Shown here piece by piece: positions 18,107 to 51,225 of a stretch of DNA of 64,000 nucleotides. Position numbers and translations under genes: made by a program. The notes beneath the pieces were generated by a model, which had not been told where the DNA came from, did not search any database, and saw only the letters and a list, made by a program, of their open reading frames with translations. Source of the DNA: Nanobdellota archaeon (GTDB taxonomy: Archaea; Nanobdellota; Nanobdellia; Pacearchaeales; GW2011-AR1). How positions within the stretch are numbered: the stretch's first letter is position 1; each line of letters opens with the position of its first letter. The stretch is from contig JBBSYO010000022.1 of the NCBI GenBank assembly GCA_038045185.1, positions 164 through 64,163 of the forward strand. Direction: 5' to 3'.

Positions 18107-18715
18107 AGAAAATCGTTGAAATTTCCTACCGAACCGGAGCAAGCTCCGCGGTATAAAAAACTCCTTGAATTCATCTTGGCAGTTTTTTAGCCAGAGAACA
18201 AAAGACTAAAATCTACTCCGATTTAGATAAAGGATTTTGTTCTCTGTATTCGGAAATGTCAAGATGCCTGATGACTTGCATCTTGAGCACACAAGGTTTG
18301 CAACTTTAAGCAAATCTTGCTGTTTCTGATTCACGATTTTCTAATTAGAATCGTCAAGAACAAAGTTCTTGAGCGCCTCGAAAATCTTACGAGATTTTCG
18401 CAGTTTTACTCCACAGCAAGCTGCGGGGTATTCAACCCAAAAATTCTAATCAAAAAGTCCTTGAGTTTTACCACATGTCAAAAACCACTGGTTTTTGAGC
18501 ACTGCCAAGAATGCAACGCCAGGCATCCTTGAGGGTTGGATGTGTCAAAAACTTCTTTTTTGAGACCTCGCAAATATAGACATTCCAGTTGATTGTGCTG
18601 TATCGGTGTGGGAATGTATAGACAGAGATTCTTGAGCAATAAGTAGCTTAATCAGGGGGAATCTCTGTATCTTGGATTCGTAAAGTTTTAAAAAGCCCCA
18701 TCTTCTCGAGTTGAT
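18107..18715. repeat. 609-nt noncoding region packed with TCAAGA...TCTTGA-type hairpin palindromes (hairpin array A)
   Basis: At least 8 perfect stems of 8-11 bp, e.g. 18193-18245, 18259-18286, 18354-18372, 18379-18400; shares conserved blocks with 40651-41308. Confidence 0.6.
18686..18694 (+). promoter_or_regulatory. TATA box TTTTAAAAA for the GT2-alg14-alg13-methyltransferase operon
   Basis: 22-30 nt upstream of the ATG at 18716 (leaderless spacing); followed by AGCCCC, as seen at 43971. Confidence 0.45.
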
Positions 18716-19507
18716 ATGCGCGTTTCGATTATTATACCTGCGTATAACGAGGAGAGACGTATATTGCCAATGCTCAGGCGATACGGAGAGTATTTTGAAG
18801 ACCTGAGAAAGAAGCGGGAGCTGAACTATGAATTTCTCGTTGTAATTAACAATACGACCGACAATACTCTTTCTGTGGTGAAGAATGCGCAAAAAACCAA
18901 CCCGCGTATCCACTATCTCGACCTCAAACTAGGCGGAAAGGGGCTTGCCATTATTGCGGGATTCAAAGACGCGCTCAAGCGACCCAACGACCTAATCGGG
19001 TTTGCCGATGCCGACATGGCAACTCCCCCAGAGGCCTTTTACGACCTTGTGCGTTCTGTTAATCGGTGCGATGGGGTCATTGCAGCCAGATGGAGACGCG
19101 AGAGCGTTATTACAAGGCAGACATCATTATTCAGAGTCAAGAGCTTCATTTTCAACCTAATCGTGCGTTCGCTCTTCCTTTTTCCCTATAGGGACACACA
19201 ATGTGGGGCGAAACTATTTACGCGGCGCGCCATTGAACATGTGCATGATAAAATGAGCATTACGAAGTGGGCCTTTGATATTGACCTTTTATACAAATTA
19301 CGAAAACTTGGATTCGCAGTTATAGAAAGACCTACTATTTGGGAGAGTAAAGAAGATTCACGCATTCGGCTCGTTACCGCATCTGTAGAAATGTTTTTGG
19401 CTGTTATTCGCCTGCGGCTTGTTCATTCCCCAATGGCATTTATCGTGCGAACCTATGACGCTCTCCCGCAACAATTAAAAATGCACCACCGTATCTGGAT
19501 TCAATGA
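18716..19507 (+). CDS. GT2 glycosyltransferase, dolichyl-phosphate hexosyltransferase-like (DPM1/AglD-AglJ-like)
   Basis: 263 aa; IIIPAYNEE...DxD-type motif FADADMATPPE...QCGAKLF typical of Dol-P sugar synthases. Confidence 0.78.
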   Translation: MRVSIIIPAYNEERRILPMLRRYGEYFEDLRKKRELNYEFLVVINNTTDNTLSVVKNAQKTNPRIHYLDLKLGGKGLAIIAGFKDALKRPNDLIGFADADMATPPEAFYDLVRSVNRCDGVIAARWRRESVITRQTSLFRVKSFIFNLIVRSLFLFPYRDTQCGAKLFTRRAIEHVHDKMSITKWAFDIDLLYKLRKLGFAVIERPTIWESKEDSRIRLVTASVEMFLAVIRLRLVHSPMAFIVRTYDALPQQLKMHHRIWIQ

Positions 19508-29259: not shown

Positions 29260-29469
29260 GATGATGACGTGGAAGACTGCTTTAAATATCTTTTCAGAAG
29301 TGCCAAGAACCGCCAGTCGCAGACCGAGGTATGTAAACGCCATACTTCGCGTGGTCGTCGAGAATCTTTGTTCTTGATGACCGTCAAAGTTAAAAATCTT
29401 TGGGGGCGTGGTTTTTTTCAAGTTCCTTGACATCAGAAGATTTTGAGGTCTCAGAATTTCCCTAGAGAT

Positions 29470-29500
29470 TAAACCACTCGTCTTTGACGAGTGGAATTCC
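29470..29500. repeat. 9-bp stem hairpin (CCACTCGTC ttt GACGAGTGG) plus GAATTC and an AGTTTAAAAG box
   Basis: Perfect inverted repeat between two minus-strand genes; the 14-mer GACGAGTGGAATTC recurs at 41198-41211. Confidence 0.55.
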
Positions 29501-39498: not shown

Positions 39499-40245
39499 AT
39501 GCGCTATCAAAACATTCTAATTACCGGAGGCACGGGAAAACTCGGAAAGGCGTTGCTTGCTTCCAACTTCTTCAAAAGGAAAGTGTTCGCGCCTACGCAT
39601 ACCGATATGGACATTACCAACAAAGAACAGGTAGGGCGCTACTTCAATGAGCATGAGATTGATGCAATCATACACTGCGCTGCGCTTATTAATATGAAAG
39701 AGTGCGAGACTAATCCTGCCTCGGCTATCAAAGTCAATATTAATGGGACAGGCAATTTGGTAGAAGCGGCATTAAATAAACCTCACACGAGATTCGTTTA
39801 TATCTCTACTGATTACGTGTACCCTTGTGAAAATGGACCCTATAGCGAAAGTGATTCTGCGATTCCATTTACTTCCTATGGCTGGACAAAGTTGGGCGGA
39901 GAATGTGCTGCACGCACAATTAAAGACCACTGCATTGTCCGAACAAGTTTTTTTAACCCGGTGAATATTCCTTATGACGCTGCTCCTCTTGATTCATTTT
40001 GTTCAAAGATTCCCATATCTGAGTTAGCCGAGGCAATTATTGCTCTGCTTGACAGCGATTTTGTTGGGGTGATAAATGTCGGACAGGAACGAGCGAGCCT
40101 TTATGAGATATTTAAGAAGTATAAGCCTAGTATCCAATCACAGACGCTTGAAGAAATTAATCGTGCGGCTCCAATAAAGCGCGCGAAAGATTCTTCATTA
40201 GACGTGAGCCTTTGGAATAAATTTAAGGCGCTGGCGAAGACTTAA
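39499..40245 (+). CDS. NAD(P)-dependent sugar-nucleotide reductase/epimerase (RmlD-like SDR)
   Basis: 248 aa; ITGGTGKLG, YGWTK (YxxxK); third RmlD-like paralogue in the window. Confidence 0.62.
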   Translation: MRYQNILITGGTGKLGKALLASNFFKRKVFAPTHTDMDITNKEQVGRYFNEHEIDAIIHCAALINMKECETNPASAIKVNINGTGNLVEAALNKPHTRFVYISTDYVYPCENGPYSESDSAIPFTSYGWTKLGGECAARTIKDHCIVRTSFFNPVNIPYDAAPLDSFCSKIPISELAEAIIALLDSDFVGVINVGQERASLYEIFKKYKPSIQSQTLEEINRAAPIKRAKDSSLDVSLWNKFKALAKT

Positions 40246-40248
40246 ATA

Positions 40249-40650
40249 GTGAGAAGAAAATCTTTTTTTATGGCAATTGAAAAGGTCGTGTATGAGGCGA
40301 AGCATGACGTGCAGACGAACGATGCGCGAACGATTACCACCTTGTTCGACGGAGATATATCTGATTTTTCTTGCGAACAGATACGAATCGCGCATATTAT
40401 TAAGGGTGGCTGGATGGGAAATCATTGGAGGGAGTATCCTGAATTGTACGGAGTTATTGGCACGGCGACTTTTGTTCTTGAAGATATTAATGCCAAACAG
40501 CGAAAAAAATATACACTTGACACTGGAGACCGGCTTTTTGTCCCCCCACGGGTGGCACTCAAGGTACGCGGAAAAGTTGGAACAGTTATAATTGTTTGTG
40601 CGTCCAAAGCAGATAGGAGTACAGGGACACATGCGTACCAAGTAGATTAA
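40249..40650 (+). CDS. cupin-fold protein, possibly a sugar-nucleotide ketoisomerase/epimerase (WxcM/FdtA-like)
   Basis: 133 aa; beta-rich sequence; location in the deoxysugar cluster; weak similarity to FdtA-like cupins. Confidence 0.35.
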   Translation: MRRKSFFMAIEKVVYEAKHDVQTNDARTITTLFDGDISDFSCEQIRIAHIIKGGWMGNHWREYPELYGVIGTATFVLEDINAKQRKKYTLDTGDRLFVPPRVALKVRGKVGTVIIVCASKADRSTGTHAYQVD

Positions 40651-41308
40651 ATGATAGATTCATTAGCAGTAGTTTTGTCAAGAATCAAAAACACGATGCG
40701 CCACCACACCTTAAAACGTCAGGAATCATGGATTCCTGAGCGCCTCGAAATTCAAAGAATTTCTCAGCCTCAAGAACTACGGTTCTTGATGGCCATCAAA
40801 GATTAAAAATCTTTGAGGGGTGTGGTTTGAAAAGGCGCTCGTGTCATCAAGGACTTGTGTCCTTGAATGCCATCAAGAATGTAAATTTCCAACATTCTTG
40901 AGGTTTGGATGCTCAAGAAGCGACCACACCATAAATGGTGTGGTTTTAGTCAAGCTTCTTGACATCAAAAAGTCCTTGGGTTTTTTTGTGTTGGACTCAT
41001 CAAGAACTTGGTTCTTGACATTATAAATTCTTGATGATTCAATTGCAAGAGAAATATTTTATGGATTTCTCTGCACAGAGAATTACCATTGTCAGCAATT
41101 CTCTTGTGTCAGAATTCTTGGTGTCTTGAACATGTCGGAAATCTTCGATTTCTGAGTACTCTCAGGAATTTCATTCCTGAAGCTGTCAGAATTCGACGAG
41201 TGGAATTCTGAAGTTTAAAAGCGTTTAAATTGGTTCAATAAAGAGAGCCATAAGAAAAATTTGGTCAAGCCAAGATAGATTTTTAAACAAGAAAGTTTTT
41301 GATTAATT
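40651..41308. repeat. 658-nt noncoding region with nested TCAAGA...TCTTGA hairpins (hairpin array C), homologous to array A
   Basis: Perfect stems at 40721-40737, 40770-40789 and approximately 40923-40946, among others; shares TGAGCGCCTCGAAA (40737-40750) and ATCAAAAAGTCCTTG (40964-40978) with array A. Confidence 0.6.
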
Positions 41309-42055
41309 ATGTTAAGGCAAATTCAGAAGAGTGTATATCTATTCTTAGCAAAATACAAGATTTTCTATCCCCTGCTCTTTAGAATATTAATAAAGAAAGG
41401 CTACTTAGAAGAAGATTTTGACAAAATAATAAAGAGATATTCAAATAAAAATAAAAATTTATTTTTCATTCAGATAGGGGCTAATGACGGAATGAAATTT
41501 GATCCAACTTACTTATACGCAAAAAAATATAGGTGGAAAGGCATTTTAGTAGAGCCCGTTGATTATGTATTTGGAAAACTCAAAAATAATTACAGAGGAT
41601 TTAATGGCTTAATTTTTGAAAATGTAGCAATAGGAGAAAAAAATGGCTTCAAAAAATTCTATATGTTAAAAAAGAGCGAGGGGGAAGATATTCCGTTATG
41701 GTATGATGAAATAGGCTCATTTTTTAAAGAAAATGTTATTAAACATAGAGACAGAATTAAGGATTTGGATAAAAGATTGATAACTAAAAAGATAAAAGTT
41801 CTAACTCTTAAATCCTTGCTTGGAAGGCATAAAGTTAACAGAATAGACTTCCTGCAGATTGATACGGAAGGATATGATTATCATATATTGAAACAGATTC
41901 CATTTGATAAAATAAAGCCGTCTATGATAGTTTTTGAAGATAGACATCTACCAAAAAATCAAAAAGAATATTGCCAAAGATTGTTAATTGATAACGGTTA
42001 TACCATTGTTCGCGGTTTAGATTGTTTTGCTTATCTCCGAAGTCGACAACCCTGA
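41309..42055 (+). CDS. FkbM-family methyltransferase
   Basis: 248 aa; very AT-rich; FIQIGANDG motif typical of Methyltransf_21/FkbM. Confidence 0.72.
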   Translation: MLRQIQKSVYLFLAKYKIFYPLLFRILIKKGYLEEDFDKIIKRYSNKNKNLFFIQIGANDGMKFDPTYLYAKKYRWKGILVEPVDYVFGKLKNNYRGFNGLIFENVAIGEKNGFKKFYMLKKSEGEDIPLWYDEIGSFFKENVIKHRDRIKDLDKRLITKKIKVLTLKSLLGRHKVNRIDFLQIDTEGYDYHILKQIPFDKIKPSMIVFEDRHLPKNQKEYCQRLLIDNGYTIVRGLDCFAYLRSRQP

Positions 42056-46840: not shown

Positions 46841-47395
46841 TCACTTGATAGCCTCCATCTCAATATGACAAGATCCTGTATGTTTGGGCATTAACTTATA
46901 CAAAAATATTTTTAACTTATTGCTTGCCCCATAAAAATAATTAAACTTATGATTTTTAAATTTGCCAAACAAATATTTTAAGTGACTTGCGACAAACACA
47001 GTGTAATGATGGTCTTCTGTTTCTCCTTCTTTTTGCTTATGTCCAAATGCTTCGGTAGCGTATTGAATATCGATAGCCCTGTTAGATTCATGTCTTTTCC
47101 AAAAATAAGTTAAAATAAATCCCGCATGGTCTGTTCTAAGCCATATCTTTCCTCCTTTTTTGAGAACCCTATAGCACTCATCTGAAAAAGTTCCTAAATT
47201 CTTAATATGTTCTAAGACAGATTTACAATAAATTTCATCAAAATAATTGTTTGGATAAGGCAGTTTTCCGTTAATGTCCGCTACTTCCGTTGTAGAAGAA
47301 GTTTTAAAAATATCTATCCTATGAGTGCCATAAGTATCATTTCCACAGCCAACATTTAATATTTTTTTTACTTTTTCCATATTTAATATATGCAT
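46841..47395 (-). CDS. class I SAM-dependent methyltransferase
   Basis: 184 aa; ILNVGCGND motif I; KSVLEHI; KKGGKIWL. Confidence 0.65.
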   Translation of the reverse strand: MHILNMEKVKKILNVGCGNDTYGTHRIDIFKTSSTTEVADINGKLPYPNNYFDEIYCKSVLEHIKNLGTFSDECYRVLKKGGKIWLRTDHAGFILTYFWKRHESNRAIDIQYATEAFGHKQKEGETEDHHYTVFVASHLKYLFGKFKNHKFNYFYGASNKLKIFLYKLMPKHTGSCHIEMEAIK

Positions 47396-47397
47396 AA

Positions 47398-47664
47398 TTG
47401 TGCAGACTTGCTATAAAAATATATCTGTCCTTTTATGCAGATATGGTTAGAAAGTCCATTATAAAAATTATTAAGGAAATTAAGGTGCTTTTGGAAAAAG
47501 AAAGAGAATTGTCCACTAGACAAATTTCTATTAAAACGCGTTCTCAATGGAGAACTGCAAATAAAGCTTTAGAAGTTCTTGTTTTTCTTGATGTAATAAA
47601 GAAAAGAAAAAATAAAGAAACGGATAGAGTTGAAATTTTATATTCTTTAAAGGATTGTAACTAA
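47398..47664 (+). CDS. hypothetical small basic protein (possible winged-helix)
   Basis: 88 aa; AT-rich; no family recognised. Confidence 0.2.
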   Translation: MCRLAIKIYLSFYADMVRKSIIKIIKEIKVLLEKERELSTRQISIKTRSQWRTANKALEVLVFLDVIKKRKNKETDRVEILYSLKDCN

Positions 47665-47671
47665 AAAAACT

Positions 47672-48799
47672 TTAGTTAATTTTTACGCCGCGTTGTTTGA
47701 GGATTTCCTTGGCTTTCTCGATGTAGAATCCCTTGGGCTTGACTTCTCCATTTTTAATTGGGATGATTCCCTCAGATTCCAATTTCTCCTTGATATCAGC
47801 TTCGACCATCATTTCAGCTATCTCCTTAAATTTCACCTTGGATTCCCATTTAAGAATGTCTTTTGCCTTAGAATAGTCTCCCAATAATGCCGGAACTTCA
47901 GCAGGCCGTTTAAAACGGTCGTCAATGATAACATAATCTTCATAGTTTAGTCCGACTAATGAAAAAGCAAATTGTAAAAATTCGCGCACAGTATGAGTTT
48001 CATTGGTCGCAATAACGAAATCATCAGGATGTGAATGCTGCAATATGTGCCACATAGCTTGCACATACTCTGCGGAAAACCCCCAGTCGCGCTTGGCATC
48101 AAGATTGCCCATTTTAATTTTATTTATTTCGCCAACTACGATTCTGGCCAGTTCCATTGTAATCTTTCTTGTCACGAAATTATGACCTCGCCTTGGAGAT
48201 TCGTGATTGAAAAGAATTCCGTTCGAGGCGAAAATATTATAAGCGTTCCTGTACATTTTTACTAGATGAAACGCAGCCACCTTTGATATGCCATATGGGC
48301 TTTGTGGCTGAAATGGGGTGCTTTCATTTTGCGGGGGCGGAGAAATACCGAACATTTCAGAAGACGAGGCTTGATAAAATTTACATGGCAGGTTCATGTC
48401 CCTGACTGCGTCTAACAGTCGCAGGGTTCCGAGGGCGTTTATATCAAACGTAGAAAGCGGATTGTTAAAACTAATTCCTACGTGGCTCTGCGCACCTAAA
48501 TTATATATTTCGTCAGGCTTAACGAGTTCTAATATTGAACGCAAGCTTGGAGCATCGGTTAAGTCCGCGTAATAAAGTGCAAACTGCACTTCGGAATTTT
48601 GCATCATGTCAGAGTTATAAGTTTTATAAAGGTGGTCTATTCTGCGCGTGTGAAGCGTGGAAGAGCGGCGCATGATGCCTCTGACGAAATAACCTTTTTT
48701 TAGCAAAAATTCTGCCAAATATGAGCCGTCTTGCCCAGTTATTCCTGTGATGAGGGCGACTTTTTTATTTTCCATGAAACGTAACAAAAACCGCTCCAT
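47672..48799 (-). CDS. gmd: GDP-mannose 4,6-dehydratase
   Basis: 375 aa; ALITGITGQDGSYLAEFLL, YGISK, and the highly conserved GMD segments NHESPRRG. Confidence 0.9.
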   Translation of the reverse strand: MERFLLRFMENKKVALITGITGQDGSYLAEFLLKKGYFVRGIMRRSSTLHTRRIDHLYKTYNSDMMQNSEVQFALYYADLTDAPSLRSILELVKPDEIYNLGAQSHVGISFNNPLSTFDINALGTLRLLDAVRDMNLPCKFYQASSSEMFGISPPPQNESTPFQPQSPYGISKVAAFHLVKMYRNAYNIFASNGILFNHESPRRGHNFVTRKITMELARIVVGEINKIKMGNLDAKRDWGFSAEYVQAMWHILQHSHPDDFVIATNETHTVREFLQFAFSLVGLNYEDYVIIDDRFKRPAEVPALLGDYSKAKDILKWESKVKFKEIAEMMVEADIKEKLESEGIIPIKNGEVKPKGFYIEKAKEILKQRGVKIN

Positions 48800-51109: not shown

Positions 51110-51225
51110 ACAAAACCACGAACAAGCCCCGCATCTCAAGAATGCCTAATCTACATTCTTGATGACCATCAAGAAATAAAATTTCTTGAGGCTTTAGTGC
51201 GGGGTTAAAACTAGCAGGTTTTGTG
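51110..51225. repeat. nested multi-helix element (hairpin array D core); possible structured RNA
   Basis: Outer stem 51110-51117/51217-51224; inner stem 51127-51133/51198-51204; internal hairpins 51137-51163 and 51169-51189, both of the TCAAGAA(T) type. Confidence 0.5.

Follow-up and report, generated by a model that had tools for sequence, protein, structure and literature searches.

What is the 658-nt intergenic gap at positions 40651-41308, in which palindromes follow each other and nest in each other? The gap, termed array C, belongs to a 64,000-nt stretch of DNA (the window) from a Nanobdellota archaeon. It lies in a glycosylation/polysaccharide gene island, between a truncated RmlD-like gene with a small open reading frame (ORF) ending at 40650 on the left and an FkbM methyltransferase gene, whose ATG is at 41309, on the right. 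The first-pass annotation regarded its hairpins as a paralogous family placed upstream of operons. The present analysis suggests, with a probability of roughly 0.6, that array C is composed, as a mosaic, of short palindromic repeats of DNA, which form a family of Nanobdellota similar to the repetitive extragenic palindromes and bacterial interspersed mosaic elements (REP/BIMEs) or to the MITEs (miniature transposable elements with inverted repeats).

Array C contains 11 distinct perfect hairpins (stem of at least 8), which is about 80 times the density of the rest of the window. With overlapping calls of one hairpin included, 48 such perfect hairpins were called in the window, 30 of them within arrays A, C and D, which total ~1.9 kb. 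Hairpins of the TCAAG...CTTGA type (stem of at least 7) are confined to these three arrays, all of which are intergenic. When 40676-41216 was folded as single-stranded DNA, the plus strand gave -122 kcal/mol versus -60.9 +/- 5 kcal/mol for the shuffled sequences (z -12.2), and the opposite strand gave z -13.6 against shuffles. About 3% of the 64-kb stretch consists of one family of nested hairpin repeats.

The palindromes named in the first-pass annotation are all present, some of them displaced by 1-3 nt; for example, the hairpins placed at 41003 and 41189 are located at 41000-41018 and 41186-41211. Six further hairpins of array C had been missed (40796-40816, 40847-40866, 41048-41072, 41077-41104, 41136-41154 and 41162-41180). 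Two blocks that were said to recur in arrays A and C do so exactly: block 1 (TGAGCGCCTCGAAA) at 18370 and 40737, and block 2 (ATCAAAAAGTCCTTG) at 18449 and 40964, each nowhere else in the window. The TCAAGAATG hairpin also occurs in array D as proposed, at 51136-51162. A third block (ACATGTC-hairpin-GAGYAC) is common to arrays A and C and comes next in the same order. The shared 14-15-mers proved to be parts of conserved modules, which keep the same order in A, in C and in other genomes. They are thus not coincidences without order, and the idea of a paralogous element family, rather than chance palindromes, holds. Judged from their sequences, arrays A and C look like one backbone with different nested inserts.

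Anatomy, carriers and pairing of the module

The repeat unit is a hairpin of 19-29 nt with a perfect stem of 8-10 bp, which corresponds in size to REP hairpins of about 20-40 nt. The stem base (TCAAGRA...TYCTTGA) is fixed and is usually extended by CC...GG with one bulged A; the stem top and the loop are variable. The units are mostly paired at exactly 6 nt, through the linker NNRCCA, to form a double-hairpin (DH) module of ~55 nt. In many copies the DH is closed by a variable stem, so that a three-way junction results, and this junction is surrounded in turn by one more stem. The modules also nest in the loops and stems of other palindromic modules, which results in three-way junctions, nested hairpins and arrays; nesting in the loops of other hairpins was found in loci L064 and L065, at 40913-40962 of the window and in array D. 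The arrays of L083, L091 and L101 share with array C a period of 77-79 nt and an alternating best-scoring strand. Conserved linkers between the modules include GGTTTGGATGC and GGCGCTCGTG. The module order common to array C and the arrays of other genomes is the AAAACG-TCAGGAATC hairpin-GCGC, the DH, GGTTTGGATGC, a hairpin, and the GCAC-AGAGAA hairpin-TGTG.

A strict DH pattern, in which the inner stems, the loops and the entire 3' arm of hairpin 2 were left free, matched the window three times and none of 100 shuffles. The pattern was scanned over 596 Gb of species-representative genomes, with ~1 chance match estimated and all counts being lower bounds. At least 110 stretches matched; among those listed, 108 are archaeal, from at least 29 metagenome-assembled genomes (MAGs), and two are bacterial. 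The carrier MAGs are labelled Pacearchaeota, Woesearchaeota, Nanoarchaeota or "archaeon", and come from groundwater, lakes and sediments. Among the matches listed, the maximum for a single MAG is at least 19 stretches (CAYIAU01: L019, L028, L030 and 16 further stretches), and the closing arm of hairpin 2, which the pattern did not require, is present in 103 of the 112 archaeal copies. Apart from the repeats, the listed loci show no DNA similarity to the window, and orthologous proteins among the carrier loci are 54-75% identical; the carriers are therefore deeply diverged.

A covariance model (R1) was built from 56 distinct copies. The use of an Infernal model, which had been recommended in the first-pass annotation, worked as a detector of copies: R1 recovered the copies of arrays A, C and D and a decayed fourth copy at 29355-29407, and the related loci (622 kb) yielded ~150 distinct modules. 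At more than 700 nt from the triggering match, 7.4 further sites per 100 kb were found, versus 4 unit hairpins in shuffles of all loci. The window has 4 sites in 64 kb, and ~75 sites per Mb were estimated elsewhere. The two bacterial matches (L041 2551-2593, Rhodobacterales MAG; L042 1247-1277, Flavobacteriales MAG) were rejected as chance, being apparent coding sequence without the second closing arm. Viral carriage was rejected as well, since the single IMG/VR match (L124 1613-1646) is inside an ORF, was unscored by R1 and is attributed to chance.

The real copies are intergenic; ten cases "inside an ORF" were short ORFs across arrays, which were taken as spurious. No bias was found in the orientation of the copies relative to neighbouring genes (27 co-oriented, 21 anti-oriented, 18 in divergent gaps and 7 in convergent gaps), and the double hairpins are separated from stop codons by a median of 126 nt and from start codons by a median of 172 nt. 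After clustering of 844 ORFs, no gene family was present in more than 7 of the 110 listed loci. By eye, the ORFs with DHs on both sides were judged to be ordinary (PIN/toxin-antitoxin-like, thymidylate kinase, ThyX and transporter), and the neighbours in other genomes include tRNA synthetase, thymidylate kinase, transporter and rRNA genes. Within a genome the copies are near-identical, whereas between genomes the stem tops and loops differ yet stay complementary. To judge from the sequences, such near-identity within and compensatory change between genomes is the apparent signature of amplification from a few masters. The CAYIAU01 repeat is a longer composite, of which many copies start with TAATGTGTGGATGTATATAAATAGTGGTTTTATCTTAGCT and have a TATA-like box ~25 nt before the first hairpin; some of these composites might carry their own promoter.

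No Rfam family reached the gathering threshold in the window, and 40500-41400 gave only weak hits far below the gathering score (E 0.3-8.4). No description of these repeats was found in the literature, and the TCAAGRA double-hairpin family appears to be previously undescribed.

The pairing of the stems is maintained by compensatory changes. Two pairs that the search pattern had left free contain no mismatch: pair 9-32 is A-U in 43 copies and G-C in 13, and pair 11-30 is U-A in 28, C-G in 26 and A-U in 2. Over 123 distinct model-aligned rows, 94.7% of the cells are paired, versus 85.3% in shuffles and 32-52% with slid partners, and double changes number 327 versus 103 in shuffles. Loops differ in length, and it is complementarity rather than sequence that is retained in the inner stems, which rules out independent duplex half-sites. 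RNA that is selected on one strand normally tolerates G.U pairs and shows strand asymmetry. Here G.U accounts for ~1% at the covarying positions, and the two strands fold equally well (60 versus 48 copies, Wilcoxon p=0.40); the constraint is therefore read as acting on DNA, in the form of single-strand hairpins or cruciforms. The pair statistics thus point to DNA-level palindromes rather than strand-specific RNA, even though detection by an RNA model worked.

The modules might nevertheless be structured RNA, such as non-coding RNA genes, cis-acting transcript elements (stabilisers, processing signals or terminators) or protein-bound three-way junctions. The very strong covariation and the recurrent three-way junction, with its variable and covarying closing stem, would agree with this, and some copies are located in transcribed DNA (in an rRNA spacer beside a tRNA gene, and at P9 of a group I intron). 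Some closing stems also contain G.T pairs on one strand (two in array D, three in L104), and in CAYIAU01 a TATA-like ATATAAATA is directly upstream of many copies. However, the strand favoured by the wobble pairs conflicts between copy types and gives no strand choice, and the low G.U level, the equal folding of the strands, the unbiased orientation (27 versus 21), the decayed copies and the missing Rfam match all argue against RNA, which is regarded as improbable. As the module is near-symmetric, an orientation-independent RNA role, for example as a hairpin stabiliser, is a possibility.

Possible mobility, maintenance and rival explanations

Evidence for insertion and removal comes from the backbone GGCRCTCGTGY^TTTGGATGC, which is itself a repeat across many genomes. 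It was found 17 times empty and 17 times filled with CA-DH-GG (among the filled cases, 5 of the 17 represent one locus, array C, in the window and L001-L004), and both states occur in the MAG JACPXY01. No target duplication is visible at the empty/filled backbone, and the left flanks of the modules have no constant 4-5-mer. A second case is the 16S-23S spacer of the Pacearchaeotal locus L047 (1520-1618), where an insert of ~109 nt with a DH has CTTAA(G) on both sides and abuts the 5' end of the spacer tRNA gene. This insert is absent from the spacer of the related L049 (2200-2228); the CTTAAG on both sides of the L047 composite is ambiguous as a target duplication. In L047 an identical composite of ~115 nt is present both in the spacer and towards the 3' end of a group I intron of the 23S gene, and the corresponding part of the L049 intron also contains a DH. 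The introns of the two Pacearchaeota (L047 5097-5527 and L049 5728-6228) are at an I-CreI-type site, GAACGT^CGCGAGACAG, and match Rfam Intron_gpI below its gathering score, with 25.9 bits (E=1.4e-4). The DH lies in their 3' (P9) region, and the P8 loop of the L049 intron has an extra TCAAGATTC hairpin.

The copy at 29355 shows that copies degrade. Contigs of the same population (ENA, NCBI GCA_964361575.1 and Logan) end inside arrays A and D, at ~18355, 18394, 18473, 18671 and ~51230. Strain polymorphism of the arrays was considered and rejected, as array C is identical in every contig and the A/D contigs simply end inside the arrays. Such repeats break short-read assemblies; model R1 can annotate the copies, flag weak points of assemblies and serve as a clade marker.

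In the favoured explanation as mobile palindromic DNA repeats, the module would be a non-autonomous mobile or amplifying DNA element, whose recognition would require a hairpin in single-stranded DNA or an extruded cruciform. It would be inserted and removed precisely, with no visible target duplication, and would build up where it is harmless, such as intergenic DNA off the promoters, the loops of other copies, the rRNA spacer and the periphery of the intron. Several observations weigh against this. Array C is identical in all strains recovered, and the case for mobility comes from paralogous backbones, either empty or filled, and from one poorly conserved spacer, which are not strictly orthologous sites. 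Of the 110 listed loci that matched the pattern, only one has a Y1 transposase gene, to which L003 is added from the same population as the window, and the ends of the IS200-type Y1 elements of these archaea are CCGCAGCTTGCTGCGG-type hairpins, not TCAAG. The motif of the stem base is the same in species with housekeeping proteins that are only 54-75% identical. Bacterial REPs are species- or genus-specific. Conservation as deep as that of the core is unusual for REP-like repeats, and would fit a purely selfish element no better than it fits a conserved partner or function of the host.

It is tentatively proposed, as a possibility that falls well short of the favoured explanation, that the TCAAGRA DH is the recognition structure of a conserved Nanobdellota protein, either a domesticated HUH-type enzyme or a host factor, and that the family is ancient and vertically maintained in these minimal genomes, and no passing parasite. 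With a domesticated HUH-type enzyme, this would be the first REP-RAYT-like partnership in Archaea (RAYT, REP-associated tyrosine transposase); with a host factor, the extruded hairpins would be a punctuation of the genome. The genomes of DPANN archaea are among the smallest and densest of all cells. The core of the family is unchanged across at least 29 species. A related explanation, which dispenses with selfishness, takes the hairpins as binding or structural sites of a conserved host protein, such as a nucleoid, topoisomerase, replication or repair factor that binds cruciforms or hairpins, with a function at the level of the genome. The identical TCAAGRA/CCA/GG core in these species, the linker fixed at 6 nt and the perfect pairing on both strands are consistent with it, as are the ~75 sites per Mb in genomes with a reported coding density of ~90% (bioRxiv 10.64898/2026.05.13.725050). 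On the other side, the copies decay and nest in each other and in the intron; their number and the tops of the modules differ sharply between genomes, as with bursts of amplification; they show no positional regularity relative to genes, and no candidate protein emerged. As a full account, host sites seem quite unlikely; a conserved host protein as the recogniser is nonetheless a serious alternative, and is compatible with the mobile-repeat explanation. Bacterial REP/BIMEs are both selfish and co-opted. If the family is host-maintained, it would mark a process that depends on DNA structure; if it is mobile, it would be an archaeal analogue of REP/BIMEs, and could help to explain the persistence of such elements in organisms from which no transposases but those of the IS200 type have been reported.

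No mobilising or binding enzyme was found; a tblastn search for Y1 proteins (E<=1e-3) over the window and the loci matched only L003 and L049. In the strain L003, an IS200/IS605-type Y1 transposase of 146 aa (288-810, ~40515 of the window; HUH motif DHLH, Y motif YVEEQ), with its own end hairpins, precedes an identical array C by ~240 nt on the left side. The transposase has numerous relatives, most of them from short contigs, which are named IS200/IS605 transposases of Pacearchaeota. The DNA of L003 further to the left does not match the window; this indicates that the island was rearranged at array C between Hainich wells. The end hairpins of the Y1 elements are of the TTTTACCCCGCAGCTTGCTGCGGCTGGG type, and at the five elements inspected (L003, L049, L121, L122 and L123) no TCAAG hairpin was found beside Y1, the ends being of the CCGCAG/CCCCACGG type. 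A RAYT gene flanked by its repeats was not found among the loci searched, and the Y1 genes of L003 and L049 lack TCAAG flanks. A HUH/Y1 single-strand transposase acting in trans is the leading and most concrete candidate for the partner; it has no direct support from the present data, and its involvement is considered doubtful.

As a sub-case of the mobile-repeat explanation, the DH could be a miniature IS200/IS605 derivative, reduced to a left-end and a right-end hairpin by deletion of the interior, similar to the palindrome-associated transposable elements (PATEs) and moved by a Y1 transposase through single-strand "peel and paste". This agrees with the direct order of the two hairpins, which are similar and each have a bulged base at the foot, the precise presence or absence without target duplication, and the Y1 gene close to array C in L003. 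Solo IS200-end hairpins also occur inside the arrays, albeit rarely (window 18408, L048 and L111), and the junction of array D has ends similar to the IS200 left end GTTTTACCCCGC. The Y1 orthology group K07491 is reported to be the only transposase group with strict hits in 256 Nanobdellota proteomes (bioRxiv 10.64898/2026.05.13.725050). On the other hand, only subclass 1.1 (IS200-type) Y1 proteins and no RAYTs were found in Archaea (Quentin et al. 2018, PMC6006769), and the five inspected Y1 elements do not end in TCAAG hairpins. The DH modules, which have no conserved target tetranucleotide on their left, end just 2 nt from the hairpin feet. The ends of IS608 have a different geometry. Such an origin of the DH therefore seems unlikely.

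The first-pass annotation had also implied that the arrays regulate the operons downstream, so that array C would be an operator- or enhancer-like region of palindromes for the glycosylation operon. It is correct that arrays A and C precede plus-strand genes with TATA-like boxes: TTTTTAAA is at 41280-41287, 22 nt upstream of the ATG at 41309, and a similar TTTTAAAAA is upstream of the ATG at 18716. All four repeat sites of the window are also located in the polysaccharide/glycosylation island. A TATA box ~25 nt upstream is compatible with a leaderless archaeal mRNA. However, the last hairpin of array C ends ~70 nt ahead of the box, which is the promoter of the FkbM gene, outside the repeat mosaic and not a part of the element. 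The genes on the two sides of array D are convergent, those around the fourth site are both on the minus strand, and elsewhere the modules adjoin unrelated housekeeping genes, with no tie to glycosylation operons. The variable loops, and inner stems that covary without conservation of sequence, would fit intrastrand pairing and not the binding of a dimer on duplex DNA. The regulatory role is thus largely refuted by the distribution of the family, and is very improbable. Other candidates were rejected as well. The junction sequences, compared by eye, do not fit the hammerhead, the twister, a bulge-helix-bulge intron, box C/D, H/ACA or a tRNA minihelix. A replication origin does not agree with the multiple sites, with the absence of a skew switch or with the absence of orc1/cdc6 among the ORFs examined. 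Integron attC sites have a different consensus, and the present hairpins are adjacent without cassettes.

Layout of array C and the other sites

Array C starts with composite element 1 (40684-40844, minus strand), a multi-branch junction that holds the double hairpin DH1 and two more hairpins. Its outer stem is formed by ATCAAAAACACGATGCGCC (40684-40702) and GGCGCTCGTGT (40834-40844), and its inner stem by ACCACACC (40703-40710) and GGGTGTGGT (40818-40826); the architecture is that of the "type A" copies of L039, L079, L055 and L015. Within it, the module AAAACG-TCAGGAATC-atg-GATTCCTGA-GCGC (40713-40743, plus strand) includes the palindrome AGGAATC-atg-GATTCCT at 40721, with the full hairpin at 40719-40739. 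This module contains the start of block 1 (40737-40750), and was also found in L083 and L091 of the Woesearchaeota MAG CAZOCP01. DH1 follows at 40767-40820 on the plus strand and consists of TCAAGAAC-tacg-GTTCTTGA (40770-40789), the linker TGGCCA (40790-40795), TCAAAGATT-aaa-AATCTTTGA (40796-40816) and GG. It scores 63.0 bits on the plus strand and 60.7 on the minus strand, because its linker is palindromic.

DH2 (40844-40905, plus strand, 61.6 bits) is the filled state of the backbone GGCGCTCGTGT^TTTGGATGC (40834-40912). It is composed of CA, TCAAGGAC-ttgt-GTCCTTGA (40847-40866), the linker ATGCCA, TCAAGAATGT-N9-ACATTCTTGA (40873-40901) and GG. A nested hairpin follows at 40913-40962, in which TCAAGAAGC...GCTTCTTGA encloses a loop with ACCACACCAT/ATGGTGTGGT (40923-40944); the same layout recurs after GGTTTGGATGC in L100, L053 and L107. 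Block 2 (ATCAAAAAGTCCTTG, 40964-40978, minus strand), which is exact in array A, has the reverse complement CAAGGACTTTTTGAT, the 3' outer-stem strand of copies such as those of L027 and L102.

In the right half of array C, a single unit hairpin TCAAGAAC-ttg-GTTCTTGA is at 41000-41018 (20.1 bits). Two AGAGAA-type hairpins (41048-41072 and 41077-41104, plus strand), followed by TGTG-TCAGAA, represent the module GCAC-AGAGAAWW hairpin-TGTG, which was also found after GGTTTGGATGC in L017, L099, L111, L118 and L083. A diverged double hairpin (41132-41184, plus strand, 31.7 bits) has the stems CGGAAATC-ttc-GATTTCTG (41136-41154) and TCAGGAAT-ttc-ATTCCTGA (41162-41180), and the last hairpin of the array is TCAGAATTC-N8-GAATTCTGA (41186-41211). 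Outside the mosaic are the ATG of the FkbM gene and its TATA-like box (41280-41311, plus strand).

The members of array A span 18351-18535 and include DH-like copies at 18351-18405 (30.9 bits) and 18474-18535 (39.9 bits, minus strand), blocks 1 and 2 at 18370 and 18449, and the solo hairpin at 18408-18435, which is similar to an IS200 left end. The solo hairpins CCACAGCAAGCTGCGGGGTA and CCGGAGCAAGCTCCGCGGTA of this array (18408-18435 and 18133-18160) match the left-end hairpin of Pacearchaeotal IS200 elements, and are probably remnants of IS200 ends, as far as this match indicates. The fourth site (29355-29494, plus strand) is separate from the arrays A, C and D. It includes the decayed double hairpin at 29355-29407, which has mismatched stems and scores 29.5 bits, and a second hairpin, CCACTCGTC/GACGAGTGG, at 29474-29494. 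Array D contains a three-way junction (51125-51206, plus strand, 62 bits), which encloses a double hairpin at 51136-51189. Its closing stem is formed by AGCCCCGCAT (51125-51134) and GTGCGGGGTT (51197-51206) with two G.T pairs, and the junction is followed by TAAAAC, in the manner of the IS200 left end GTTTTACCCCGC.

The window is part of a 162,861-bp contig from Hainich groundwater (0.1-um filter fraction). Its gene content is archaeal, with a ribosomal-protein operon, SecY, prefoldin, a 5S rRNA gene and three tRNA genes; the SecY and glycosyltransferase proteins are labelled "MAG: Nanoarchaeota archaeon" at NCBI. A Methanosarcina origin, which the GC content and the TATA boxes had at first suggested, was rejected accordingly. 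To the left of array C, the RmlD-like ORF (248 aa, in 39499-40650 of the window) covers profile positions 2-150 of 287, ends with TAA, and is followed by an ORF of 126-133 aa without a Pfam match; the region is probably a truncated or rearranged gene. To the right, the FkbM gene (41309-42055) is in a 1-kb bin of 29.8% GC, versus ~42% around it, and a second low-GC bin (32.6%) is at 47001-48000. The arrays may be borders of laterally acquired cassettes in the glycosylation island.

Comparison with known repeat systems

The family shares several features with the RPE of Rickettsia, the pneumococcal BOX/RUP and the Correia elements of Neisseria. These are selfish-looking palindromic or modular repeats, which are abundant in small, host-dependent genomes and can sit in RNA genes, as do the present copies in the rRNA spacer and the group I intron; their enzyme is unidentified or acts in trans. 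There is no sequence relationship, however. The present module is much smaller (~55 nt), with no insertion seen in coding sequence and without TA or any other target duplication.

The module ends, CATCAAG and CTTGAGG, are inverted repeats, as are those of the classical MITEs derived from DDE transposons. The target duplication of fixed length that characterises such MITEs was not seen at the backbone site, and the family was not assigned to this class. According to a MITE census (Nucleic Acids Res 2024, PMC11602168), a Woesearchaeal genome is among those with the highest archaeal MITE densities (105 per Mb), which agrees with the present estimate of ~75 sites per Mb. The census was automated, and the passages covered here do not describe the family, its double-hairpin anatomy or its conservation across the clade.

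The hairpin-defined ends and the apparently precise insertion and excision, without visible duplication, are also features of the IS200/IS605 elements and PATEs. In addition, Y1 transposases are present in the same populations, once beside array C, and solo end hairpins occur in the arrays. The two differ in that the inspected Y1 elements carry CCGCAG-CTTG-CTGCGG hairpins and another end geometry. No autonomous element with TCAAGRA hairpins was found among the five Y1 elements inspected, and the DH ends are not identical to the ends of these five, as would be expected of a PATE.

In its anatomy and its behaviour in the genome, the family also works like the REP/BIMEs. Both are short extragenic palindromes with tens to hundreds of sites per genome; for the present family, the counts are 4 sites in the 64-kb window, ~7 per 100 kb elsewhere and at least 19 stretches in one MAG. 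Both have a conserved stem base, a variable top and no target duplication, and the mosaics of alternating orientation with conserved linkers are those of a BIME. The doublet is apparently the unit of spread, as in the REP doublets forming hairpins (REPINs); whereas a REPIN is one long hairpin of two inverted REPs, the present doublet consists of side-by-side hairpins with a 6-nt linker. The hosts are archaeal (DPANN) rather than enterobacteria or pseudomonads, and the stems are essentially perfect. The REP tag GTAG/CGTC is absent, the feet being CC-A / GG or CA / G, and a RAYT gene flanked by the repeats, which characterises the REP-RAYT systems, was not found among the loci searched. The core motif of the present family also spans species far more divergent than those sharing one REP type. 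On these comparisons, the family is best described as REP/BIME-like palindromic repeats in a new archaeal variant, which extends across the clade and acts at the level of DNA.

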